A DNA stretch of 64,000 nucleotides, from assembly GCA_963663115.2 (NCBI GenBank), contig CAXXNE010000001.1, positions 81,862-145,861 on the forward strand, written 5' to 3'. Both the position numbers and the translations under genes were made by a program. The notes below the pieces were generated by a model. The model was not told the origin of the DNA. It ran no database searches and saw only the letters and a program-made list of their open reading frames with translations. Origin of the DNA: an uncultured Paludibacter sp. (GTDB lineage: Bacteria; Bacteroidota; Bacteroidia; Bacteroidales; Paludibacteraceae). Every line of letters starts with the position of its first letter. Position 1 is the first letter of the stretch. Below are positions 26,037-46,385 of the stretch, in pieces.

Positions 26037-26160
26037 GTTCGTAAACTTCTCTTAACCGTCGCTTAATGAAGCTTCGAATCGAGAAACTCGTTGGCGACGG
26101 TATTTTGCCCCCAACCATTACATTGTCATTCCGAGGGCAACGAGGAATCTAACATTTTTA
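26037..26160. repeat. copy A of a ~125-bp direct repeat flanking the GIY-YIG gene
   Basis: Aligns base for base with 26487-26610 at an offset of exactly 450 bp, with about 5 mismatches. Contains an ACCGTCGC...GCGACGGT inverted repeat and the motif TTGTCATTCCGAG. Confidence 0.9.
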
Positions 26161-26470
26161 ATTGTTTATTCGGTAACTTAATTTCATTATTTTCAAATAA
26201 TTCAAGCCATGCCGGATTTAAATTATTAATTAAATTATTCTTTTTTTCGCGGGAATAACCTTTAATTTGTTTTTCTCTTGCTATAGCCTGACTCACATCC
26301 TCAAACAGCTCAAAATAAACTAACTTTTTTACGTTATATTTTTTTGTAAAACCTTCATTTAAACCAGACTTATGTTCAGTTATTCGTCGTAATAAATTAT
26401 TTGTAACACCTGTGTAAACCACAGTATTACTTTTATTTGTAAGAATATAAACATAATAATGATTTCTCAT
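26126..26470 (-). CDS. GIY-YIG nuclease-family protein
   Basis: YYVYILTNKSNTVVYTGVTNNLLRRITEHK is the GIY-YIG (UPF0213-type) signature. The last ~10 codons are encoded by repeat copy A. Confidence 0.85.
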   Translation of the reverse strand: MRNHYYVYILTNKSNTVVYTGVTNNLLRRITEHKSGLNEGFTKKYNVKKLVYFELFEDVSQAIAREKQIKGYSREKKNNLINNLNPAWLELFENNEIKLPNKQLKMLDSSLPSE

Positions 26471-26486
26471 TTTTTTATTAATTTCT

Positions 26487-26610
26487 GTTCGTAAACTTCT
26501 CTTAACCGTCGCTTAATGAAGCTTCGAATTGAGAAACTCGTTGGCGACGGTATTTTGCCCCCAACCATTACATTGTCATTCCGAGTGCAACTAGGAAACT
26601 AGAATTTCAG
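26487..26610. repeat. copy B of the ~125-bp direct repeat
   Basis: See copy A. It lies between the rfbG stop (26635) and the GIY-YIG start (26470). Confidence 0.9.
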
Positions 26611-28897: not shown

Positions 28898-29390
28898 GTT
28901 TAATAAAAAACTATCTACTTCTTACTACTCACTGTCTTCCAACTTTCTAACTTTCCACTATACAAACTTTCTACTTACTACCAACTACCTACTTCTTTTC
29001 ACGGCAATGCCCCGCCACCCACAGTTGCAGATAGCCAGAGCGCTATAAATAAAGACATTATCCTATACGAATGATTGGAGGGAAAGAGATACAGATTCAA
29101 CAAGGCATCAGACGAGAAAATCATCTGAAGATAACACGAGAAGTATAAAAGTAACAGAAAGAAATACCGACAACTATCGGGTAATGTATTTTATAAGAAC
29201 TTTTAAATTATTTTTTTCTATTACTTACATAGCAACCGGCTACCCGATTGTCAATGTAGTTCATTCTAAATAATTAATTGTCAATTATCAATTGTCAATT
29301 ATCAATTATGTATATACTAATGTTAAACAAATAGCTGAAACTGTCATCACAATTCACTCCATGGAAACTCGTAGCCGGATAAATGCAGCA

Positions 29391-29398
29391 CAAATATA
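29391..29398 (-). promoter_or_regulatory. candidate -7 box (TATATTTG, minus strand) for the biosynthetic operon
   Basis: Perfect TAnnTTTG match about 494 nt upstream of the vanZ-like ATG. The distance is long, so this is weak. Confidence 0.25.
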
Positions 29399-29414
29399 GC
29401 AAAAATTTGTTAAG

Positions 29415-31335
29415 TTGAAACCTGCAGGCTGTTTTTTATTTCAAATATATAGGTTTTTGGTTCTCGCATCCCGATAGCTATCGTGATCCAAGTCGCGATA
29501 GTATAAGGAATAAGCGCAGTTTTTCGGGTGCAGCGAGCTCCGACTCGCTGATTAAATGTGGTAGCACTAACTCAGTCAGAGGTTTCAAACAAAGAAAATG
29601 ACAGGCTGGAAGCCTATTGACCCATGGAGTAAAAAAGAATGGAACGCGGATTTAGCGGATATGGCTGATATAAGCGGATTTTTTATTTAAAAGACGGATT
29701 TTTCCCGGATTATTTTGCTTCGCAAAAAGCGGATTTTTGGTGCGTGGGCTAAACCTGGCAGCGTTTGTTTTCGGGTCTCGCGTCCCGATAGCTATCGGGA
29801 TCCAAGTCGCGATATTCATCAGGAATTTTTTCAAGCAACAGGGATGTCGCTTGTCCCACGATTTGTAAGAAAAAAAAAGAATGATAATACAAAGAATCTA
29901 TGGAAGCGCTGTGCTCCTCTCCTCGGGAGAGGTTGGGAGAGGTCTTTTTTGGTTTAAATATGACAGGCTGGAAGCGCTGTTAACCCATAAGCAAAAGCGG
30001 ATTTTTGGTGTGTAGCTAAACCTGGCAGCGTACGTTTTCGGGTCTCGCGTCCCGATAGCTATCGGGATCCAAGTCGCGATATTCATCAGGTTGAATTTAT
30101 GTTTCAAGCGACAGGGATGTCGCTTGTCCCACGATTTGTAAGAAAAAAAGAATGATATTACAAAGAATCTATGGCAGCGCTGTACTCCTCTCCTCGGGAG
30201 AGGTTGGGAGAGGTCTTTTTTGTTTTAAAGAAAACAGGCTGGAAGCGCTGTTAACCCATAAGCAAAAGCGGATTTTTGGTGTGTAGCTAAACCTGGCAGC
30301 GTACGTTTTCGGGTCTCGCGTCCCGATAGCTATCGGGATCCAAGTCGCGATATTCATCAGGAATTTTTTCAAGCGACAGGGATGTGGCTTGTCCCACGAT
30401 ATGTAAGAAAAAAAGAATGATATTACAAAGAATCTATGGCAGCGCTGTACTCCTCTCCTCGGGAGAGGTTGGGAGAGGTCTTTTTTGGTTTAAATATGAC
30501 AGGCTGGAAGCCTATTGACCCATGGAGTAAAAAAGAATGGAACGCGGATTTAGCGGATATGGCTGATATAAGCGGATTTTTTATTTAAAAGACGGATTTT
30601 TTTCCGGATTATTTTGCTTCGCAAAAAGCGGATTTTTGGTGCGTGAACAAAACCTGACAGCGTACGTTTTCGGGTCTCGCGTCCCGATAGCTATCGGGAT
30701 CCAAGTCGCGATATTCATCAGGAATTTTTTCAAGCGACAGGGATGTCGCTTGTCCCACGATATGTAAGAAAAAAAAATGATAATACAAAGAATCTATGGC
30801 AGCGCTCTGCTCCTCTCCTCGGGAGAGGTTGGGAGAGGTCTTTTTTGGTTTTAATATGACAGGCTGGAAGCCTATTGACCCATGGAGTAAAAAAGAATGG
30901 AACGCGGATTTAGCGGATATGGCTGATATAAGCGGATTTTTTATTTAAAAGACGGATTTTTTTCGGATTATTTTGCTTCGCAAAAAGCGGATTTTTGGTG
31001 CGTGAACAAAACCTGACAGCGTACGTTTTCGGGTCTCGCGTCCCGATAGCTATCGGGATCCAAGTCGCGATATTCATCAGGAATTTTTTCAAGCCACAAG
31101 GATGTCGCTTGTCCCACGATATGTAAGAAAAAAAAGAATGATAATACAAAGAATCTATGGTAGCGCTGTGCTCCTCTCCTTGGGAGAGGTTGGGAGAGGT
31201 CTTTTTTGGTTTAAAGAAAACAGGCTAGAAGCCTATTGACCCATGGAGTATAAAAACAATAGAACGCGGATTTAGCGATTCTGATAGCTATCGGGAGGCG
31301 CGTTCCATTTCTTTTTTTGTCATGTACTTAGCACT
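29415..31335 (+). repeat. repeat block R1: five head-to-tail composite hairpin units plus a partial unit
   Basis: Unit starts (GCTAAACCTGGCAGCG or ACAAAACCTGACAGCG) at 29748, 30015, 30286, 30647 and 31006. Each unit carries the same ordered hairpin modules, joined by two alternative linkers (~40 nt or ~130 nt, GCGGATTT-rich). Confidence 0.9.
31314..31331. mobile_element. orphan terminal repeat of the IS4-family element
   Basis: TTTTTGTCATGTACTTAG is identical (18/18) to the reverse complement of the IS end at 10478-10495. No transposase or second end lies nearby. Confidence 0.7.
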
Positions 31336-31346
31336 AGCTTATATTT

Positions 31347-31994
31347 TCAGAATGTATTTTTAATAAGGACTTTAATTGACTCCTCTATTTCGGAAGGTGT
31401 AACCTGATATACTGGTTCCAATAGAGCAAAGTTACTATCAATTTGAAAGCGTTTACTATCCAAAAGCATTGCCAGCAGGTTTTTGGTGGACAGTAAATGT
31501 CCGGAATAAGCAGTCGCTTTTGTTATTATTTCTCTGAAATTATATCCGTTTTTAAGTATTGAATAGATGTCATAATAATCTCTGAAATTGCTTCGACGCA
31601 TCAACACCTCCATTTTCATAGCTGCAATTGCCATGATGTCAGCCAATAATAAATTGTCTTTAAATGGAATTGCTGTGGTAACGGGTGAATATTTAGCGGA
31701 AGCATAAAATGAGAGTTTCACACCCGAAACAATAAATTCAACATGATCAAAGTCCCAAATTTCACGCGCTTCAATGCTCCCAATTCCACTCAATTCTTTC
31801 TCAATTTTAACCCAATCGACTTCCGGCTTTTGATTTTTATTCGAAATCCAACTCATAAAATCGAGATCTTCGCTCAGGCGGGTTTGTAACTGTAATGACA
31901 AGGCAGTACCGCCCACCAAACAGTAATTCTTTATACAATCGAGTTTACAAACACTCTCAAATATCTTTGAAGTATGTGGTGCTAAAGCTTTCAT
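31347..31994 (-). CDS. AbiEii/AbiGii-family nucleotidyltransferase toxin-like protein
   Basis: LVGGTALSLQLQTRLSEDLDF is the NTase motif of the AbiEii (DUF1814) family. 215 aa. Confidence 0.65.
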   Translation of the reverse strand: MKALAPHTSKIFESVCKLDCIKNYCLVGGTALSLQLQTRLSEDLDFMSWISNKNQKPEVDWVKIEKELSGIGSIEAREIWDFDHVEFIVSGVKLSFYASAKYSPVTTAIPFKDNLLLADIMAIAAMKMEVLMRRSNFRDYYDIYSILKNGYNFREIITKATAYSGHLLSTKNLLAMLLDSKRFQIDSNFALLEPVYQVTPSEIEESIKVLIKNTF

Positions 31995-32320
31995 TAGTAA
32001 ATGCTCAAATGTTTATTTTCAACTTTTTTCAGGTATCTGTCCGGGTTTTTAATGCCAAAATACATCCAGGCGAGCAAATTGTTTAGTCGTTTATAATAAG
32101 CACCTTGTGTTACAATTCTATCCAGCCAAACCTGTTTGATTTTTTTGTGCGGATATAATCTGAAAAGCAAATTTATATCATCAATATCAAGATAAACCAA
32201 TGTTTTCTCAATTAAAATATCGTCAGGAATAGCATTACTTTTGTTCATGTCAAATGACCAAAACCGGTTATTTGAAACCAATTTTGAAACTAATTGATCA
32301 TGTGCATTTAGAGTTCTCAT
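31994..32320 (-). CDS. small partner protein of the AbiEii-like gene (putative antitoxin)
   Basis: 108-aa ORF whose stop overlaps the toxin start by 1 nt (TAATG). No family was recognised. Confidence 0.4.
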   Translation of the reverse strand: MRTLNAHDQLVSKLVSNNRFWSFDMNKSNAIPDDILIEKTLVYLDIDDINLLFRLYPHKKIKQVWLDRIVTQGAYYKRLNNLLAWMYFGIKNPDRYLKKVENKHLSIY

Positions 32321-32570
32321 TTCTGAATTAAGATATTATGAATGAATTGTTTTATGATTTGTATACCTGCAACTAAGAGAGTATAGTGTGGTATAATCTT
32401 TCGTCATAAGCCTGAAATAATGATAAATTATCAGTTTTTTCAATTTTGCAATAAAAAAAGCCGTAATTACAACCATTTATTCCTGTTATTTATTTAACTT
32501 TTGTAGCGATTACAAGGGTCAAAGATAAGAATAATTTGCAATTTTCGCTATATGCCCGCTTGCAATATTT

Positions 32571-33466
32571 AGAAAGTGCAGGTTTTTTGGGTGCAGCACT
32601 AACCCTGACAGCGTTTATTTTCGGGTCTCGCGAACTTCCAAGTCGCGATAATTATCAGGAATTTTTTCAAGCGACAGGGAAGTCGCTTGTCCCACGATTT
32701 GTAAGAAAAAAAAAGAATGATAATACAAAGAATCTATGGAAGCGCTCTGCTCCTCTCCTCGGGAGAGGTTGGGAGAGGTCTTTTTTGTTTTAATATGACA
32801 GGCTGGAAGCCTATTGACCCATGGAGTAAAAAAAAATAGAACGCTGATTGTTTTCAACATCGCGGATTGAGCTGATATAAGCGGATTTTTTATTTAAAAG
32901 ACGGATTTTTTTCGGATTATTTTGCTTCGCAAAAAGCGGATTTTTGGTGCGTGGGCTAAACCTAGCAGCGTTTATTTTTCGGGTCTCGCGACTTCCAGGT
33001 CGCGATAGTAAAAGGAATTAGCGCAGTTTTTCGGGTGCAGCGAGTTCCGACTCGCTGATTAAAGAATATACTTCGACCTGGGAGTCGAATCACCCGAAAA
33101 ATACCGCGTTTATTGTTTGTTTATGGTTTTGTGAAGGATTTGTGTTATTGCATAGAATCTAAAATATCACAATATTTGGAAAGCGCAGTTTATTTCGGGT
33201 GCAGCACGAACCCTGACAGGAGTTGCAAACTCTGTCAGAGGTTTAAAACAAAGAAGAAAACAGGCTGGAAGCTCTGTTTACCCATAAGTAAGCGCAGTTT
33301 ATTTCGGGTGCAGCACTAATCCTGAATGCGGAGATAATGCAAATTCATATAATTTGTGGGATTCGTAGTTTATAATTTCTTATTTGTTTTAAAGATAACA
33401 GGCAGGATGCCCGTCGACCCGTGGAATTCATAGTTCTAAAAAAAGCCGGAAGTGCTGTTCCCCCAT
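32571..33466 (+). repeat. repeat block R2, built from the same hairpin modules
   Basis: Contains the TCGCGAACTTCCAAGTCGCGA, CAAGCGACAGGGAAGTCGCTTG, CCTCTCCTCGGGAGAGG-T6, CAGCGAGTTCCGACTCGCTG, TTCGACCTGGGAGTCGAA and CCTGACAG...CTGTCAGAGG modules. Confidence 0.9.
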
Positions 33467-33675
33467 GAAGAACTGATGTGGTATTCCGACAAGATACTTT
33501 TTAGCGGTATAAAGGTGGTTTGTAGATGTGTGAAATTATCTTCTGCATTCTTCAAGCTACCATCAGAATCTGTCAGGTTAGTTTTTAGATATTTGGAGAT
33601 ACCTTTTTACATCCTGCAACAAACCTTACAGTTCGCAAATGTATATAAACGAACTGCAAGGGTATTCTGATAGTG

Positions 33676-33856
33676 CCCAAAACTTCCAACTTTCCAACTT
33701 TATGAACTTTCTACTTTCCAACTTTATAACTTTCTACTTTCCAACTTTATAACTTTCTACTTTCCAACTTTATAACTTTCTACTTTATAACTTTCTACTT
33801 GCCAACTTTATCAACTTTCTACTTTATAACTTTCTACTTTCCAACTTTCTACCTTT
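33676..33856. repeat. G-depleted, octamer-periodic low-complexity tract built on a 23-bp unit (AACTTTATAACTTTCTACTTTCC)
   Basis: Only 2 G in ~180 nt. The CTTT motif recurs every 7-8 nt, with several exact 23-bp repeats. It starts immediately after the stop of the LuxR-type gene. Confidence 0.9.
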
Positions 33857-34597
33857 TCAAATAATTTCCATCATCAGTCCATAGCGAACTGCCTGGGCAA
33901 CATTGTTAGCGCCTAATTTATCCAGTACTTTACAGCGATGGTTATTGATAGTGTATACGGAGTTAGCCAGTTCTGCAGCCACTTTGGTACTATCGTAACC
34001 TTTGGAAAGAAGCTTCAACACTGTGATTTCGGTTTTGGTCAGACAGGTTTCAGTATCGATGGCATGTAATTGATCGGCGAAACGTTTGTATGTGCACATA
34101 CCACGTGCCGGTTTCTCTGCATCATACTCTCCTATTTCGTTTATCAGCAATAGTAAAAAACGTATATCTCCGCAGTCATCCTGTTCAGCTATACTGTACT
34201 GAAAATGAAACCGTCGGTAATTACCGTTTTTATCCTTTAAACTACATTCGTACATCAGTTTATACGAAAAAATATCAGGATCATTGCACTTCTCTTTGAG
34301 TTTTAATGCTTCAAGTTTGCCATTCACCACATAGGTCCGTTCGTCGGGATGTACCATTCTCTGAAGTGAATCGTAGCCGGATAGCGTAGTTTCAAAAGGA
34401 TAGTTTTCGTTGTGCGTCCATTTGACAATGTGATATGCATCTTTGAAGGTGTCGAATATCAAAACACCTTCGTTGTGGTTCAGGGTTGATGCATCCATCA
34501 TTGATTCCGGATCCTGAATACGGGCATTACTTTCTTTTGTTTCCTGTAATTGCAATTTTAAAACATAGTTTTTTAATTTTTCATTTTGGCTTTCCAT
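33857..34597 (-). CDS. LuxR-family transcriptional regulator with an N-terminal PAS-like sensor region
   Basis: The C-terminal HTH LTKTEITVLKLLSKGYDSTKVAAELANSVYTINNHRCKVLDKLGANNVAQAV is LuxR/FixJ-type. There is no receiver domain. Confidence 0.7.
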   Translation of the reverse strand: MESQNEKLKNYVLKLQLQETKESNARIQDPESMMDASTLNHNEGVLIFDTFKDAYHIVKWTHNENYPFETTLSGYDSLQRMVHPDERTYVVNGKLEALKLKEKCNDPDIFSYKLMYECSLKDKNGNYRRFHFQYSIAEQDDCGDIRFLLLLINEIGEYDAEKPARGMCTYKRFADQLHAIDTETCLTKTEITVLKLLSKGYDSTKVAAELANSVYTINNHRCKVLDKLGANNVAQAVRYGLMMEII

Positions 34598-34732
34598 AAT
34601 ACTTTTTTAATTATTTATATAAATATTTAGATTATTTATTTATTCTGTCGACACAGAACCTGTTTTAAGTTTAGTAATGAGATAAATAGTATATAATGAT
34701 TTTTCACTATTGCAGAAGATTTTTTCAACACA

Positions 34733-34740
34733 TAGATTTG
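34733..34740 (+). promoter_or_regulatory. candidate -7 box TAGATTTG
   Basis: TAnnTTTG match 122 nt upstream of the ATG at 34862, in an AT-rich divergent intergenic region. Confidence 0.3.
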
Positions 34741-34861
34741 CATTCGTCACAGGATAACAGTATTCTGACATAGCTTTATTAAAAATAACAATATTTTATA
34801 TATCACCAAAGACGTTCATTAGAATTTATTAACAAATTTATTTACCTAAAGCAATTAATTT

Positions 34862-35566
34862 ATGGCAACAGGAACAAGAATTCCCCGCGGTATTGATGAC
34901 TTCGATACCTACATTGTGAACACAAGTAATTATTTATTTAAAGGCACACCCACCAATGCCGAACGATTGGGCATTTTGACCGATGAGAGTACGCAATGGA
35001 AAGCATTTGCCGACAAATGGATGCCCGATTACCAAAAGTACAAGGACAAGAAAAACAGCAGAACCATAGCTGTGCGGGATAAACTATTACAAATCATCAG
35101 CGATACCATTGAGTACGATCAAAAAAACCGTATACTCGACCGCATAGCCGCATCGCCCAACGTGATTATTGAAGATTTGGGTATTTTCAATATTAATATC
35201 GGAATTCTGCAGAAAACCCGGCGTTCAGTATTGACCACCCCTATCACCGAACCGGTAACAGTAACCATACAACCCCTGGGCGGAGGATCAATGAATATTA
35301 AATGTTACAGCACCACAGGACAACGTTCCGCTATTTACAGCGTTGCCGACAGTGTTCAATATGTGTATATAGTAAGCGATACGCCACCTGTATCGGCAGA
35401 AGCTCCGGGTTTGAGCAAGGAGATATCAACCCGTGGTACTTTTACGCTTGCATTAGGATCAGGCAGTTCAGCCAAAAATCTGTACATCTATTTCCGTTGG
35501 TATTGCACCAAACATCCCGAACTATCCGGGCCCTGGAGCGCCATGCAAACCTCATTGATTCTATAA
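34862..35566 (+). CDS. hypothetical protein with a beta-sandwich-like C-terminal half ending ...FRWYCTKHPELSGPWS
   Basis: 234-aa ORF with a clean start and a strong terminator. It is the only plus-strand gene between 0 and 47 kb. No family was recognised. Confidence 0.6.
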   Translation: MATGTRIPRGIDDFDTYIVNTSNYLFKGTPTNAERLGILTDESTQWKAFADKWMPDYQKYKDKKNSRTIAVRDKLLQIISDTIEYDQKNRILDRIAASPNVIIEDLGIFNINIGILQKTRRSVLTTPITEPVTVTIQPLGGGSMNIKCYSTTGQRSAIYSVADSVQYVYIVSDTPPVSAEAPGLSKEISTRGTFTLALGSGSSAKNLYIYFRWYCTKHPELSGPWSAMQTSLIL

Positions 35567-35574
35567 ACAAAACC

Positions 35575-35615
35575 TCTCCCCGACTCTTCCTGCAAAAAGT
35601 CGGGGAGATTTTTTT
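35575..35615 (+). terminator. Rho-independent terminator
   Basis: An 11-bp perfect stem TCTCCCCGACT / AGTCGGGGAGA (35575-35585, 35598-35608), a 12-nt loop, then T7 (35609-35615). It begins 9 nt after the stop codon. Confidence 0.85.
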
Positions 35616-35616
35616 A

Positions 35617-36609
35617 TCATGCCCTACGGACAATATTAGGCTGCGCCTGTTATTACTCTCTCGCCAGAGGCGAGATCGTATTAATTAGCCTTCGGCTGAT
35701 ATTAGCTTCGCTGATATGTGTTTCGGGTCTCGCGACTTCCAAGTCGCGATAGTAAAAGGAATTAGCGCAGTTTTTCGGGTGCAGCGAGTTCCGACTCGCT
35801 GATTAAAGAATATACTTCGACCTGGAAGTCGAATCACCCGAAAAATACCGCATTTATTATTTTTTATGGTTTTGTGAAGGATTTATTTTATTGCATATAA
35901 TCTGAAATATCATAATATTTAGAAAGTGCCGGTTTTCGGGTGCAGCACGAACCCTGACAGGAATTGCAAACTCTGTCAGAGGTTTATCATAAAGAAGAAA
36001 ACAGGCTGGAAGCTCTGTTTACCCGGAAAAAAGTGCAGGTTTTCGGGTGCATGAACTAAACCTGTCAGCGTTTAAAAAACCTGACAGCGTTGTATATAAA
36101 TCCATCAAGCGACAGGGATGTGGCTTGTCCCACGATATGTAAGAAAAAAAAGATAATACAAAGAATCTATGGCAGCGCTCTGCTCCTCTCCTCGGGAGAG
36201 GTTGGGAGAGGTCTTTTTTGGTTTAAAGTAAACAGACTGGAAGCGCTATTGACCCATGGAGTAAAAAAGAATAGAACGCGGATTTAGCGGATATGGCTGA
36301 TATAAGCGGATTTTAAATATAGAAAAAGACGGATTTTTTTTCGGATTATTTTGCTTTGCAAAAGCGGATTTTTGGTGCGTAACTAAACCTGGCAGCGTTT
36401 GTTTTCGGGTCTCGCGAACTTCCAAGTCGCGATAATTATCAGGAATTTTTTCAAGCCACAGGGATGTCGCTTGTCCCACGATATGTAAGGAAGAAAAAGG
36501 TGATGATACAAAGAATCTATGGTAGCGCTCTGCTCCTCTCCTTGGGAGAGGTTGGGAGAGGTCTTTTTTGGTTTAAAGTAAACAGACTGGAAGCACTATT
36601 GACCCATGG
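35617..36609 (+). repeat. repeat block R3: a reverse-oriented mini-hairpin array followed by the shared hairpin modules
   Basis: 35620-35716 carries AGCCTTCGGCT/AGCTTCGCT-type mini-hairpins. The remainder repeats the R2/R4 module order nearly verbatim. Confidence 0.9.
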
Positions 36610-36624
36610 AAAGTAAGAATCAGT

Positions 36625-37029
36625 TTATTGTTTTTTATTTATCAGTTTTTCTATCTCAATTATATATTTAATTGCCGGATCGATTAATGGTTTAATATCA
36701 GCCTCCGACAAATTAAACAAGTCATCATAATCACCTGTTTGCCGCATTTCAAAAAGCTTTGAATACAATTTGGAATGCTCTTTATCAACTAAACCGGTAG
36801 CAACAAAATGCAATCCAAAAAGTCTGATAATACCTGAATGTGTTTGTGCATTATAACCATATTTAATTAGTAATGCTGATGTCATATAATAACAGGCATA
36901 ATATAATCGGTTTGTAACTGCATTCCAATAATTTAGTTGAGCAATTCCGATCGCTTCATTTAATGTGTCCTTAGATTTTTGAATTCTGTAAAAAACAATA
37001 GCATCTCTTTCTTCTTCTGTTAAGCTCAT
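36625..37029 (-). CDS. HEPN-domain protein (toxin of an MNT-HEPN pair)
   Basis: 134 aa, helical, with RLYYACYYMTSALLIKYGYNAQTHSGIIRLF typical of HEPN. It overlaps the MNT gene by 4 nt. Confidence 0.7.
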   Translation of the reverse strand: MSLTEEERDAIVFYRIQKSKDTLNEAIGIAQLNYWNAVTNRLYYACYYMTSALLIKYGYNAQTHSGIIRLFGLHFVATGLVDKEHSKLYSKLFEMRQTGDYDDLFNLSEADIKPLIDPAIKYIIEIEKLINKKQ

Positions 37030-37343
37030 AGTACAATCCCTTCCATCTCAATATTTTTATAAAACTGAGTAAAATTTCTTTTTTGCCATTCACTAAAGGT
37101 ATAAAGTTTAGGACTGATCTGTTCTCCTTCTTTCCAGCCTAACTCAATTAATGGATATGATATTTTATCAAAATCCTCATTTTCAATTTTTGGTTTATCC
37201 AGTAAAATAAGCAAATCCCAGTCTGAATTCTGATTTGCTGAATTTCTTGCTTGCGAACCATAAAGAATTACCTTTCCGCTATTATTTACAGAAATAATCA
37301 AATTTTTAATTTCAAGAAGCAACTCCTGTTTTGTTTTTTTCAT
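37026..37343 (-). CDS. minimal nucleotidyltransferase (MNT) antitoxin-like protein
   Basis: Contains the NTase motif LYGSQARNSANQNSDWDLLILLD. 105 aa. Confidence 0.7.
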   Translation of the reverse strand: MKKTKQELLLEIKNLIISVNNSGKVILYGSQARNSANQNSDWDLLILLDKPKIENEDFDKISYPLIELGWKEGEQISPKLYTFSEWQKRNFTQFYKNIEMEGIVL

Positions 37344-37372
37344 AACTTCAACTCATTAGAAAACTAATTTTG

Positions 37373-37380
37373 CAAATCTA
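37373..37380 (-). promoter_or_regulatory. candidate -7 box (TAGATTTG, minus strand) for the MNT-HEPN operon
   Basis: TAnnTTTG match 30 nt upstream of the MNT ATG (37341-37343). Confidence 0.45.
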
Positions 37381-37483
37381 TAAAAAAAATCACAATAAAC
37401 GCAATTATATCAAAGACATAAATACTATTATTCTACATTTGCAATAACAAGTAATCAATAAAGTAACATAAAACAATAGTTGT

Positions 37484-38519
37484 AAGCACATTTTTTGGGT
37501 GCGTAGCTAAACCTGGCAGCGTTTGTTTTCGGGTCTCGCGTCCCGATAGCTATCGGGATCCAAGTCGCGATATTCATCAGGTTTGAATTTATGTTTCAAG
37601 CGACAGAGATGTCGCTTGTCCCACGATTTGTAAGAAAAAAAAGAATGATAATACAAAGAATCTATGGAAGCGCTGTGCTCCTCTCCTCGGGAGAGGTTGG
37701 GAGAGGTCTTTTTTGGTTTAAATATAACAGGCTGGAAGCGCTATTGACCCATGGAGTAAAAAAGAATGGAACGCTGATATAAGCGGATTTTAAATATAGA
37801 AGAAGACGGATTTTTTTCCGGATTATTTTGCTTCGCAAAAAGCGAATTTTTGGTGCGGGCTAAACCTGACAGCGTACGTTTTTGGGTCTCGCGACTTCCA
37901 AGTCGCGATAGTAAAAGGAATTAGCGCAGTTTTTCGGGTGCAGCGAGTTCCGACTCGCTGATTAGTGAATATACTTCGACCTGGATCCCGATAGCTATCG
38001 GGACGAATCATCCGAAAAACACCGCATTTATTATTTTTTTATGGTTTTGTGAAGGATTTATTTTATTGCATAGAATCTGAAATATCATAATATTTAGAAA
38101 GTGCAGGTTTTCGGGTGCAGCACGAACCCTGACAGGAATTGCAAACTCTGTCAGAGGTTTATCATAAAGAAGAAAACAGGCTGGAAGCTCTGTTTACCCG
38201 GAAAAAAGCGCAGGTTTTCGGGTGCATGAACTAAACCTGTCAGCGTTTAAAAAACCTGACAGCGTTGTATATAAATCCATCAAGCGACAGGGATGTCACT
38301 TGTCCCACGATATGTAAGAAAAAAAATGATAATACAAAGAATCTATGGAAGCGCTCTGCTCCTCTCCTCCGGAGAGGTTGGGAGAGGTCTTTTTTGGTTT
38401 TAATATGACAGACTGGAAGCGCTATTGACCCATAAAAAGTGCCGATTTTCGGGTGCAGCGAGCTCTGAACTGCATTCCAAAAGTTAGACAAAAAACTTTT
38501 GGGATGCAGTTCATTTTTA
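37484..38519 (+). repeat. repeat block R4, same modules, ending in a 19-bp-stem hairpin
   Basis: Module order parallels R1 and R3. The terminal hairpin is GAACTGCATTCCAAAAGTT (38467-38485) / AACTTTTGGGATGCAGTTC (38494-38512), with 1 mismatch. Confidence 0.9.
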
Positions 38520-39282
38520 CACTATCAGTCCTTTACTTTATAACTTTCAAACTTCTTACTTTCTAACTTCTAAATTGGAATCGGAATTCCAATCACCCGA
38601 ATAACAATGCCATCACTCCTGCCTCATCTGACCAACATCCCGTCTGACGGATGTCCCGTCTGACGGATTAAAACAAAAGCCTGATAGCATTTGTACACTA
38701 TCAGGCCTTTACTTTATAACTTTCTACTTTCTAACTTCTAAATTGGAATCGGAATTCCAATCACCCGAATAACAATGCCATCACTCCTGCCTCATCTGAC
38801 CAACATCCCGTCTGACGGATGTCCCGTCTGACGGATTAAAACAAAAGCCTGATAGCATTTGTACACTATCAGGCCTTTACTTTATAACTTTCAAACTTCT
38901 TACTTTCTAACTTCTAAATTGGAATCGGAATTCCAATCACCCGAATAACAATGCCATCACTCCTGCCTCATCTGACCAACATCCCGTCTGACGGATGTCC
39001 CGTCTGACGGATTAAAACAAAAGCCTGATAGCATTTGTACACTATCAGGCCTTTACTTTATAACTTTCAAACTTCTTACTTTCTAACTTCTAAATTGGAA
39101 TCGGAATTCCAATCACCCGAATAACAATGCCATCACTCCTGCCTCATCTGACCAACATCCCGTCTGACGGATGTCCCGTCTGACGGATTAAAACAAAAAG
39201 CCTGATAGCATTTACACTATCAGGCTTTTTACTTTATAACTTTCTACTTTCTAACTTTTCACTTTCTAACTTTCAACTAAAA
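38520..39282 (-). repeat. tandem array of about 4.4 copies of a 168-177-bp unit, each carrying a minus-strand terminator hairpin
   Basis: The hairpin GCCTGATAG...CTATCAGGC occurs at 38679-38706, 38847-38874, 39023-39050 and 39200-39225, with a partial copy at 38520. Each unit also holds ATTGGAAT-CGGA-ATTCCAAT and a duplicated TCCCGTCTGACGGAT. Confidence 0.95.
39191..39225 (-). terminator. Rho-independent terminator of the OmpA-family gene (first of four tandem copies)
   Basis: The minus strand reads GCCTGATAGTGTAAATGCTATCAGGC followed by TTTTTGTTTT. It lies 58 nt downstream of the stop at 39283. Confidence 0.75.
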
Positions 39283-40887
39283 TCATTTTACTTTTACAAT
39301 AACCAACTGATTTTTCACCAGGTCGGTAGAGTAAGGCTGAACTCCATCGCCAAACCAACGTACTGTTACCTGTTTGGTACTTGCACCACATTTCTGAATC
39401 AGATAATTGGCTACGCTTACGGCACGTTTTTTCGAAAGTTCGGTATTGTATTCTGGTGTTACACCGGCAGTTTTACTGGCATATCCGTTCACAATAATCT
39501 GTGCATTCGGGTTTGTTTTCAGATAGTCAGCAACCTTATTCAGTTCAGCTATCTGTGCATCATCACCTATTTCAGCTTTTTCAATCAGGAAGAAAACCTG
39601 AGCAAAAGCATCGCGTACCATAGAGCTAACCGAAGCTGCATCTAAATTGGTAGCAGGAACCGTTCCAATTGCTTTTGTTGTATTTGCTTCTTCGCCGGAG
39701 TTAATAATAACCACACGGTTTTTCACTACTTCTTTGTAAGGTTGTACAGCGCTGCCATACCATTTCACCTGTATACGATCAGCAGGGATATTGTATTTAT
39801 TGATCAGCAGATTAGCCAGATTTACAGCACGACGTTTCGATACTTCGCGGTTTACAGCAGCTGTACCTGTAGCGTTATCGGCATAACCACTAACAGTAAC
39901 AATAGCTGTAGGATTTGCATTCATGTAAGATACAATTTTATCCACAATTTCCTGCTGTTTGCTATCGGTTACCGTAAATTTATTGATGCCATAGAATACG
40001 CTTTCTTTGATTTCAGGTGTAGTAATAGCCACTACCGGAGGAACAACTACAGGAACTACCGGCTCTACTACTGTTGGAACAACCGGTTTCACTGTATCCA
40101 CTTTAGCTACAATAGGTTTTTCCGGTTCTGTTACCACAGGAACAGTTGGTTCTGTCACCACAGGTACTGTAGGTTCGGTTACAACAGGCACGGTTGGTTC
40201 TGTTACTACAGGAACAACAACTTCCGGCTCTATCGGTTTTGGTGCTTTCTTTACATATTCAGGTAAACGATAACTGATACCCAGGGTTAAGGCGGGAGAA
40301 GCATCGAAAAACATAGCTGATACTTCATCGTTCGTATTATCAGTCATCATATTGCCTTCAGCAATAATATTCAGTTTTAAATCATTGGTGAGTTTAATAT
40401 CGGCCTGCGCACCTGCACGTAAAAAAGGACTTGCAAAAGGCGTAGTAACCGTATTTTTATTCATATAATCAACACCGGTACCGGCAAAAAGAAGAAAATC
40501 GAACCAGCGGTTAGCATCCCAACCATTTTCCAACGCTGATAAATTCAACAACACATCGGCTGTCAGACTTTCACCATTAAAAGGAGTTGTATAAGTTGGC
40601 CTGTAATGATTATACTGATTAAAACCAAGCATACCACGTAAAGCCCAAACAGGAGTAAAATTGTAAGTACCTGAGAAACGTCCCAGATAGCCCATACTTC
40701 CGGGAAGTGACCATGCATTGCTACCGGTACCATCCAGAATATTATTTCCTTCTCCCATAAACCAGTTAACCCCGCCATTCAGTCCCAATGACCAGCCTGG
40801 TTTAAAAGCAGTGGATTTTTCCTGCGCAAAGCTTTGAAGCACTGTGGTCATCAACAGAACCAATGTAATGATAGTCAGCTTTTTCAT
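39283..40887 (-). CDS. OmpA-family outer-membrane protein: N-terminal beta-barrel, Pro/Val/Thr/Glu linker, two OmpA_C-like domains
   Basis: A signal peptide, then a beta-barrel-like first ~210 aa. Two peptidoglycan-binding-type segments follow (VSGYADNATGTAAVNREVSKRRAVNLANLL and VNGYASKTAGVTPEYNTELSKKRAVSVANYL). Confidence 0.8.
   Translation of the reverse strand: MKKLTIITLVLLMTTVLQSFAQEKSTAFKPGWSLGLNGGVNWFMGEGNNILDGTGSNAWSLPGSMGYLGRFSGTYNFTPVWALRGMLGFNQYNHYRPTYTTPFNGESLTADVLLNLSALENGWDANRWFDFLLFAGTGVDYMNKNTVTTPFASPFLRAGAQADIKLTNDLKLNIIAEGNMMTDNTNDEVSAMFFDASPALTLGISYRLPEYVKKAPKPIEPEVVVPVVTEPTVPVVTEPTVPVVTEPTVPVVTEPEKPIVAKVDTVKPVVPTVVEPVVPVVVPPVVAITTPEIKESVFYGINKFTVTDSKQQEIVDKIVSYMNANPTAIVTVSGYADNATGTAAVNREVSKRRAVNLANLLINKYNIPADRIQVKWYGSAVQPYKEVVKNRVVIINSGEEANTTKAIGTVPATNLDAASVSSMVRDAFAQVFFLIEKAEIGDDAQIAELNKVADYLKTNPNAQIIVNGYASKTAGVTPEYNTELSKKRAVSVANYLIQKCGASTKQVTVRWFGDGVQPYSTDLVKNQLVIVKVK
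40124..40219. repeat. four imperfect 24-bp tandem repeats encoding the (TEPTVPVV)n linker
   Basis: Units start at 40124, 40148, 40172 and 40196 and differ by a few substitutions each, almost all synonymous. Confidence 0.85.
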
Positions 40888-45880: not shown

Positions 45881-45898
45881 TCCCGATAGCTATCGGGA
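45881..45898. repeat. isolated copy of the 18-bp perfect palindrome TCCCGATAGCTATCGGGA
   Basis: Identical to the copies nested in R1 and R4. Flanked by AAATCTTCAA on both sides (45871-45880, 45900-45909). Confidence 0.9.
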
Positions 45899-45914: not shown

Positions 45915-46385
45915 TCATTTCTTCACCACCTGATTTAGCTGCACGCAAACAGTTACCCCTATTTGTTCCACAAATAAAATCAGTTTATCCTTACCGGCCT
46001 TAACAACCTTGCCCTGTACATTTTTCAGTGGCCCGCAAACTACCTTCACCTCGTCGTCCGAAAGGAAAGTACAACTTTTCTCCCTGGCTTTCTCAACAAA
46101 GGTTCGCATAGCATCAATTTCTTTCTGACGGACAATTGCCGGACTTCCATTGTAATACACAATTCTGGCTACTCCATTTATCTGATACAAAGTCCTGAGC
46201 TGTTCGTCGGTTGTCTTTACAAAGATATATGAGGGAAAAAGCGGCATTTCAACCATTTTTACCCTGTCCGACCATTTACGCGGACATAAATGCAGCGGTA
46301 GATATGTTTCAATATCCCTGGCCTTCAGGCGTATCTCAACCTGTTTTTCGGCTTTAGCTGTTGTATATAGAACATACCAATTCAT
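45915..46385 (-). CDS. UpxY-family (NusG-like) transcription antiterminator
   Basis: MNWYVLYTTAKAEKQVEIRLK... is a NusG-N-like N-terminus, with a KOW-like C-terminus. It is the first gene of the export module, as in Bacteroidota capsule loci. Confidence 0.8.
   Translation of the reverse strand: MNWYVLYTTAKAEKQVEIRLKARDIETYLPLHLCPRKWSDRVKMVEMPLFPSYIFVKTTDEQLRTLYQINGVARIVYYNGSPAIVRQKEIDAMRTFVEKAREKSCTFLSDDEVKVVCGPLKNVQGKVVKAGKDKLILFVEQIGVTVCVQLNQVVKK

Follow-up and report, generated by a model that had tools for sequence, protein, structure and literature searches.

An 18-bp palindrome dispersed among hairpin repeats and tRNA-linked GIY-YIG cassettes of Bacteroidia

The window analyzed here is a stretch of 64,000 nucleotides from the genome of an uncultured Paludibacter sp. 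(genome G000, four contigs, 4.67 Mb; window C1:81862-145861), which carries eight exact and two degenerate copies of the 18-bp perfect palindrome TCCCGATAGCTATCGGGA, where shuffled sequence predicts 0.01. For the single-stranded form of this 18-mer, a hairpin with a stem of 7 bp and the loop AGCT was computed (-5.9 kcal/mol). All the exact copies start at the positions listed in the initial annotation, as does the first degenerate copy, whereas the second one starts at 31279 and not at 31280 (Table 1). Six of the exact copies lie within a host hairpin of the TCGCG type, as had been described, but their independence did not hold. Five are units of one tandem array and the remaining one, at 37541, belongs to a single host unit near-identical to those of the array, so that all six may come from one insertion followed by local amplification. 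Since the five array copies cannot be counted separately, the window represents about four to five independent events, and not ten. The degenerate copy at 29469 occupies the matching position in another subfamily of the host hairpin (downstream GATAGTATAAGG type), and that at 31279 lies midway between the arms of a more extended inverted repeat (AACGCG...CGCGTT; ...GAACGCGGATTTAGCGA-palindrome-GGCGCGTTCC...).

Empty versions of the TCGCG hairpin, with the sequence TCGCGA(A)CTTCCARGTCGCGA, were present at the five places given by the initial annotation, which was also right in that the copy at 37986 interrupts a second host hairpin whose empty form (TTCGACCTGGRAGTCGAA) occurs twice in the window. 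In the filled and empty pairs of the window, ACT/AACT or AGT (3-4 nt) is exchanged for the palindrome and no target duplication is seen, in agreement with the same source. The two host hairpins were found to be a single target read on opposite strands, CG-ACT-TCCARGTCG being equal to ...GGA-AGT-CG. The host repeat pattern GTCTCGCG-N-TCCARGTCGCGA was detected in G000 only, among 41 genomes searched, with 20 empty copies over two contigs and six filled copies, all of them in the window. The restriction of the host repeat to one of 41 genomes, set against the class-wide presence of the palindrome, suggests that the host is younger than its guest.

The context of the solitary copy at 45881 is formed by short tandem repeats (AAATCTTCAA units) and contains no hairpin. 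This context, about 45 nt long, recurs as a dispersed repeat of its own in numerous genomes within the genus, and empty versions of it exist. An apparent 10-bp target duplication at this site was rejected, as the direct repeat is part of the tandem-repeat context of the host. Two contigs encoding a protein identical to the neighboring UpxY/NusG-like protein (window 45915-46385) carry a diverged hairpin, TTCCGAGAAAAATCGGGA, at the same site; they show 92% identity over an aligned stretch of 204 columns, while the hairpin differs at 5/18 positions. The presence of a diverged hairpin at the same site of these contigs points to an old insertion at 45881.

In every filled/empty pair compared, 3-5 nt were lost and zero target duplications were found. 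In both rRNA spacers of G000, a partial copy whose anticodon loop holds the palindrome comes after an intact tRNA-Ile(GAT) gene; the intact sequence CTG-ATAAT-GTAG, in which ATAAT corresponds to nt 35-39, reads CTG-palindrome-GTAG in the partial copy. The same was observed for tRNA-Met(CAT), where CTC-ATAAT-CAGG of the intact gene (at C1:1889730; gene C1:1889704-1889780) is represented by CTC-palindrome-CAGG in five copies of an array. ATAAT was likewise replaced at loci L099 (two copies) and L146, and in a repeat family unrelated to tRNAs (C1:1692371 compared with 3539493 and 813453). In the D-loops of partial tRNAs from six loci the replaced nucleotides were AGT, GTT or AGTT, and in a T-loop AGCC was replaced by the palindrome variant CCCCGATAGCTATCGGGG. 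A fixed side of the loop was considered and rejected, given that D-loop insertions take the 5' part, and anticodon- and T-loop insertions the 3' part. Because the replaced nucleotides are present in every intact tRNA, the empty state is the ancestral one in the tRNA cases, and these comparisons indicate that the palindrome entered its hosts secondarily, by insertion and not by deletion from a filled ancestor. The insertion proposed by the initial annotation was thereby upheld, and an ancestral filled form, which it had named as the finding that would count against it, was contradicted in the tRNA cases.

Throughout G000 the palindrome occurs in 27 exact copies, which makes it by far the most over-represented perfect palindrome of the genome. 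Its 12-bp core CGATAGCTATCG was counted 40 times, whereas GACGCCATGCATGGCGTC, which ranks second among the 18-bp perfect palindromes, has six copies. Outer-pair compensatory variants that preserve the symmetry were found as TTCC..GGAA (five times) and CCCC..GGGG (twice). Repeats with the same stem and other loops were also noticed in this genome, namely CAGCCCC-TCCCGATAGTAATCGGGA-TAAACAGGGGTTGGGGG (about 9 copies), CTACAA-TCCCGATAGTGATCGGGA-TATAATACAGAGAGTGGGATT and TTTGGTC-TTCCGATAGCTATCGGAA-CGTTGGTTC.

The distribution of the 18-mer was surveyed in 41 related genomes including G000, in an even draw of 150 Bacteroidia genomes (completeness at least 90%, 101 genera), in an out-group of 226 genomes from other classes of the same phylum, and in a public scan with one genome per species, the reversed pattern serving as control. 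Exact copies were present in 17/41 relatives and in 42/150 genomes of the class (28%), distributed over 34/101 genera with 1-42 copies each. None of the 226 out-group genomes carried it, and the reversed pattern gave zero matches in any sample. The public scan yielded at least 120 stretches with the 18-mer. Among the matches listed, a few lacked a taxon name and all but one of the named records were Bacteroidota, including Bacteroidales, Flavobacteriales, Chitinophagales, Sphingobacteriales, Cytophagales and Saprospiraceae; the exception, L099, comes from a metagenome-assembled genome labelled Variovorax paradoxus, which was probably mis-binned. Viral contigs from IMG/VR contributed 46 stretches with the exact 18-mer (L191-L236), five copies being found on one 23-kb contig. 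By eye, the hosts on viral contigs included hairpins followed by a T-run and repeats of the CCTCACCCC...GAGAGGGG type, several copies lying in the loops of terminator-like or other hairpins.

Flanking sequences were compared for 156 non-redundant sites, using as null the random re-pairing of left and right flanks (500 permutations) and defining a flanking stem as perfect pairing within 6 nt of the palindrome. Stems of at least 5 bp flanked 15.4% of the sites versus 4.6% of the permuted ones (3.3-fold; 0/500 permutations reached the observed value), and stems of at least 6 bp flanked 8.3% versus 1.4% (6-fold). The enrichment in hairpin contexts that the initial annotation proposed to look for was found, at 3-6 fold, although only 15-30% of sites have hairpin flanks; since most sites lacked a flanking stem in this test, hairpin loops are a real preference but not a rule. 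Exposed loops are occupied above chance in repeats, in repetitive extragenic palindromes (REPs), in terminators and in the D-, anticodon and T-loops of spare tRNAs. Short tandem repeats are targets as well, and represent a second context: direct repeats of at least 6 nt flanked 6.4% of the sites versus 0.4% expected. The location is strongly non-coding, with 11/118 sites within open reading frames (ORFs) that make up 77% of the bases. At the +1 flank A was depleted (6% versus a background of 28%), and the +3 flank was purine-rich.

Neither a known RNA family nor a conserved template was recognized. Rfam 15 gave no match in the window at gathering score, and only sub-threshold chance matches in 29000-39500. 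The behavior expected of intrinsic terminators was not seen, as flanks were varied and no T-run followed most copies, some of which by eye lie in the loop of another hairpin that precedes a T-run. A template in a conserved RNA gene was rejected because TCCCGATAG half-sites outside palindromes were scattered, without any listed context resembling such a gene and with none in the rRNA spacers read. In the literature, no paper was found containing the 18-mer sequence, and none joining GIY-YIG, tRNA gene, Bacteroidetes and mobility.

Clustering of the ORFs located within 700 bp of 140 sites revealed one recurrent family, a bare GIY-YIG domain (PF01541) of ~90 aa, which was present at six loci within 8-kb blocks, 7-429 bp from the palindrome, and whose catalytic Tyr, Tyr, Gly, Arg, His and Glu residues are conserved. 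In G000 this gene forms an array (L139) in which each unit carries a 95-aa GIY-YIG gene (e.g. L139:1959-2243). The five full units contain, at most 7 nt after that gene, a 5'-truncated tRNA-Met(CAT) copy with the palindrome in place of ATAAT, and the ORF continues through the tRNA fragment and the palindrome; the sixth unit, with a truncated GIY-YIG copy, ends the array. At L099 the order is 5' half of tRNA-Met, palindrome, intact tRNA-Met, GIY-YIG gene, palindrome, and 3' half of the tRNA. In this cassette, as found in G000 and in 6 of about 120 loci from the class, the hairpin that patches the tRNA copy is the exact 18-mer. From 19 cassettes inspected, 14 had at least one exact YCCCG...CGGGR hairpin in the loops of spare tRNAs, and the other five had no such hairpin or only near forms; of 12 cassettes taken from genomes with the 18-mer, seven contained it exactly and three contained only close variants. 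Patched tRNA copies were recorded in the G000 array (C1:1915845-1917461, five copies), at L043, L059, L099, L119, L127, L145 and L146, and in the cassettes of G115, G378, G485, G476 and G498. The copies in the window do not show this arrangement, being solitary, in hosts other than tRNAs and far from GIY-YIG genes.

The GIY-YIG family and the palindrome also co-occur at the genome level. Among 40 relatives the nuclease gene was present in 14/16 genomes with the palindrome versus 4/24 without it (Fisher p = 1.3e-5), and in the class sample in 41/42 versus 70/108 (p = 7.5e-6; G452 enters as one count, with GIY-YIG present and palindrome absent), although these p-values overstate the case because related genomes are not independent. 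The palindrome was thus almost confined to genomes having the nuclease family, and the three genomes that carried it without GIY-YIG had one copy each, two of them being incomplete assemblies. Two further GIY-YIG loci were noted. A nine-unit array with a 374-bp period (L172, G478:C1:489000-492800), adjoining tRNA-Leu/tRNA-Gly, contains a GIY-YIG gene and a patched tRNA fragment with the hairpin CCCCGATTAAATCGGGG, which is absent from the rest of that genome. The window itself has a UPF0213-type GIY-YIG gene (114 aa, 26126-26470, minus strand) between direct repeats of ~125 bp (26037-26610); it lies in a polysaccharide locus and belongs to a subfamily other than the tRNA-linked one, and no YCCCG...CGGGR patch was seen in the sequence of 26037-26610.

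Table 1. Positions of palindrome copies, host hairpins and related features (window numbering, or contig coordinates of G000 where a contig is named).
Feature	Position	Strand	Remarks
Degenerate copy TCCCGATAGCTATCGTGA	29469..29486	.	1 mismatch
Tandem array	29725..31277	+	271- and 361-bp periods, units 93-95% identical; amplified one filled host hairpin
Exact copy	29783..29800	.	in host hairpin TCGCG-palindrome-TCCAAGTCGCGA; first tandem-array unit
Exact copy	30050..30067	.	tandem-array unit, not an independent event
Exact copy	30321..30338	.	tandem-array unit
Exact copy	30682..30699	.	tandem-array unit
Exact copy	31041..31058	.	tandem-array unit
Degenerate copy TTCTGATAGCTATCGGGA	31279..31296	.	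2 mismatches
Empty host hairpin TCGCGAACTTCCAAGTCGCGA	32628..32648	+	
Empty host hairpin TCGCGACTTCCAGGTCGCGA	32986..33005	+	
Empty second host hairpin TTCGACCTGGGAGTCGAA	33072..33089	+	
Empty host hairpin	35730..35749	+	
Empty second host hairpin TTCGACCTGGAAGTCGAA	35816..35833	+	
Empty host hairpin	36412..36432	+	AACT form
Exact copy	37541..37558	.	single host unit, near-identical to array units
Empty host hairpin	37889..37908	+	
Exact copy	37986..38003	.	takes the place of AGT in hairpin TTCGACCTGGA-AGT-CGAA
Solitary exact copy	45881..45898	.	between wza-like and UpxY/NusG-like genes, within short AAATCTTCAA repeats
GIY-YIG cassette array (L139)	C1:1915554-1917741		five full 404-bp units and one truncated
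Partial tRNA-Ile(GAT), D-loop to 3' end (L140)	C1:3138642-3138760 and C1:1115260-1115380		between tRNA-Ile and tRNA-Ala
Intact RAYT gene, 194 aa	C4:386305-386889		in locus C4:386000-391500 (L141)

Several explanations were weighed for this distribution. A REP-like element moved as a single-stranded hairpin by a REP-associated tyrosine transposase (RAYT) or an IS200-type Y1 (HUH) transposase, the enzymes pointed to by the initial annotation, would fit the lack of target duplication, a feature of insertion by the HUH enzymes of IS200/IS605 elements, and G000 encodes about ten Y1_Tnp genes and one RAYT (NF047646, 99 bits). Two RAYT genes of other genomes also have a palindrome close by, 117 bp upstream in G014 and 24 bp downstream in G002. 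However, Y1_Tnp occurred in 36/41 relatives regardless of the palindrome (16/16 with it, 19/24 without it), the eight best-scoring Y1 genes in G000 all lacked a palindrome in the surrounding 1.5 kb, and the neighborhood of the 140 sites showed no enrichment in Y1 genes, only one locus having such a gene, 2 kb away. The intact RAYT of G000 had no adjoining copy, even with up to 3 mismatches, in its 5.5-kb locus (L141), the nearest being an exact copy at C4:388663 (about 1.8 kb) and a one-mismatch copy at C4:390671. Both lie exactly at truncation junctions of a 2-kb tandem duplication, each unit of which opens with a RAYT cut off by the palindrome just before its HUH motif (SNHLH). The RAYT of G014 is flanked by a REP of its own, GGTGGGATAGCATATCCCACC, and in one of the REP copies TAT has given way to the palindrome (empty form GGTGGGATAGCA-TAT-CCCACC). 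REPs vary by lineage, whereas the 18-mer is invariant across the class, and its copies were single and spread over 34/101 genera instead of being lineage-specific inverted doublets. We consider movement by such enzymes improbable. A gene bracketed by two palindromes in the manner of RAYTs was sought too and rejected, since L012, L026 and L064 hold ordinary genes between their copies. In another region of G000 (C1:632829-633500, L137) a Y1 gene (C1:632928) is located between the inverted hairpins CCCCCGGATTTATCCGGGGG and CCCCCGGATAAATCCGGGGG, an arrangement that resembles another REP-RAYT pair, with no relation to the 18-mer. A hairpin that does not move and is selected for a function (the operator of a dimeric regulator, a terminator, or a signal for the processing or stability of RNA), repeated by way of its host repeats, would account for the exact conservation over the class, the symmetry kept by compensatory outer-pair variants, the intergenic location and the occupation of the 45881 site in strains 92% identical over the aligned stretch. 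It is, even so, a very unlikely explanation, because the distribution is patchy, with 28% of genomes and 1-42 copies, and because the palindrome is lodged in the loops of dead tRNA fragments as well as in other selfish repeats and in genes that it cuts short; in addition, its position relative to genes is not fixed, most copies have no T-run after them, no Rfam family matched, and the hairpin at the orthologous site differs at 5/18 positions in a stretch that is 92% identical as a whole.

The main rival is a spread without any dedicated enzyme, which we regard as possible though rather unlikely, and in which a self-complementary 18-mer, able to pair with any other copy whatever its orientation, would be pasted into broken fragile loops and rearrangement junctions by template switching or by break repair primed on an ectopic copy, GIY-YIG cassettes, REPs and terminators being only favored hosts. 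The replacement of 3-5 nt without target duplication is consistent with it, as are the copies at duplication or inversion junctions (C4:388663, C4:390671, 31279 and the units of tandem arrays), the distance of most copies from GIY-YIG genes, with none near one on viral contigs, and the failure of other cassette hairpins to disperse. Left unexplained by such a process are the invariance of one 18-mer over 34 genera while equally good hairpins stay put, the link to one nuclease family both at 7-429 bp and at the genome level, and the depletion of A at +1.

Our preferred explanation, which is given a probability of roughly one half, is that Bacteroidia harbor in TCCCGATAGCTATCGGGA a miniature hairpin element, either mobile or templated again and again, which derives from the tRNA-lodged GIY-YIG cassette and is probably spread by it. 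Among the YCCCG...CGGGR hairpin patches, taken as one family, the 18-mer would be the most common, and the family would belong to a cassette composed of the bare ~90-aa GIY-YIG gene, an intact tRNA gene and patched partial tRNA copies. The palindrome would most likely be spread by the GIY-YIG nuclease or when cells repair the breaks that this enzyme produces, and the solitary copies, those of the window among them, would be non-autonomous or represent footprints. The window would then record one insertion into the host repeat followed by tandem duplication together with the host, with two to four more sites acquired separately. A more specific version is offered only tentatively, as we hold it to be doubtful: the 18-mer would be the minimal non-autonomous partner of a bare GIY-YIG nuclease that cuts the exposed loops of extruded hairpins, those of tRNA genes among them, the break being healed by a self-annealing palindromic "adaptor" taken from another copy. 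Among mobile DNA elements whose enzyme has been identified, the 18-mer would then be the smallest, and it would give rise to tandem duplications and rearrangement junctions in Bacteroidia.

Several observations weigh against the cassette as the source of the palindrome. About 95% of the copies are far from any GIY-YIG gene, and no such gene was found in the 46 viral stretches (423 kb read). The broad GIY-YIG family occurs in 74% of the class genomes and kinship inflates the co-occurrence statistics, and the cassettes, like REPs, could be no more than favored places of insertion. The hairpin variant of the cassette itself was confined to the cassette in three genomes that lack the 18-mer, so the GIY-YIG cassette alone is insufficient for dispersal, and dispersing is a property peculiar to the canonical palindrome. 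A tree of 36 host copies obtained with a looser pattern (30 empty, 6 filled) was poorly resolved, and fits one insertion with gene conversion or several insertions alike. Finally, the comparison of strains for filled and empty sites suggested by the initial annotation gave a single pair of related contigs, occupied in both, and no strains in which an orthologous site was filled in one and empty in the other; no insertion event was seen directly.

Partial likenesses to known systems were identified. The repeats SDR4-6 of Nostoc/Anabaena, as reportedly described by Elhai et al. in 2008, are about 20-27 nt long, often form hairpins, are nested in other repeats, and were said to be mobile on the basis of filled and empty sites; they are not known to have a transposase. 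The 18-mer resembles them in being a very small hairpin repeat nested in other repeats with filled and empty sites, but SDR4-6 belong to another phylum and differ in sequence, whereas here an 18-bp perfect palindrome is invariant over a class, takes the place of 3-5 nt and is linked to the GIY-YIG cassette found at tRNA genes. SegB of phage T4 is a free-standing GIY-YIG homing endonuclease in the phage tRNA gene cluster; Seg proteins have a DNA-binding domain and are not known to leave dispersed palindromes. By analogy, the cassette may be likened to SegB in its small GIY-YIG gene among tRNA genes with a duplicated target sequence alongside, and it differs in having a bare GIY-YIG domain and dispersed palindromes. 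The terminal inverted repeats and target-site duplications of miniature inverted-repeat transposable elements were not found, the pairs of the 18-mer losing 3-5 nt instead. Palindrome-associated elements derived from IS200/IS605 did not correspond either: they exceed 100 bp, have subterminal hairpins at both ends and insert 3' of a fixed tetra- or pentanucleotide, whereas the flanks of the 18-mer are only weakly biased. REPs and the REP doublets known as REPINs are short dispersed extragenic palindromes, lineage-specific and arranged as inverted doublets, which flank their own RAYT gene and are thought to move as single-stranded hairpins (PMC3116915). The 18-mer is likewise a short, dispersed and intergenic palindrome, but its copies are single and the same in 34 genera, and RAYT-linked REPs serve as its hosts. 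Hairpin repeats of mitochondria (yeast GC clusters, double-hairpin elements and the RHEs of sponges) are short, spread into intergenic DNA as well as into loops within structured genes, and in some cases adjoin the ORF of a mobile endonuclease (PMC2800124); they occur in organelle genomes, vary in sequence and are usually longer than the 18-mer.

What is new here is that a cassette palindrome has dispersed, one copy at a time, to hairpin repeats with no relation to the cassette, together with its class-wide invariance and its rules of replacement. The 18-mer offers a simple marker for the system and is a likely cause of misassembly and of misannotation; in G000, ORFs continue by way of it through the tRNA fragments of the cassette. 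If the proposed explanation is true, bacterial mobile DNA would extend down to 18 bp with a sequence invariant over a class, an invariance that would imply a sequence-specific machine. It would also provide a function for many of the orphan ~90-aa GIY-YIG genes found beside Bacteroidia tRNA genes, explain partial tRNA duplications, including the one in the rRNA spacers, and reveal where tandem arrays and breakpoints come from at loci like the capsule locus in the window.

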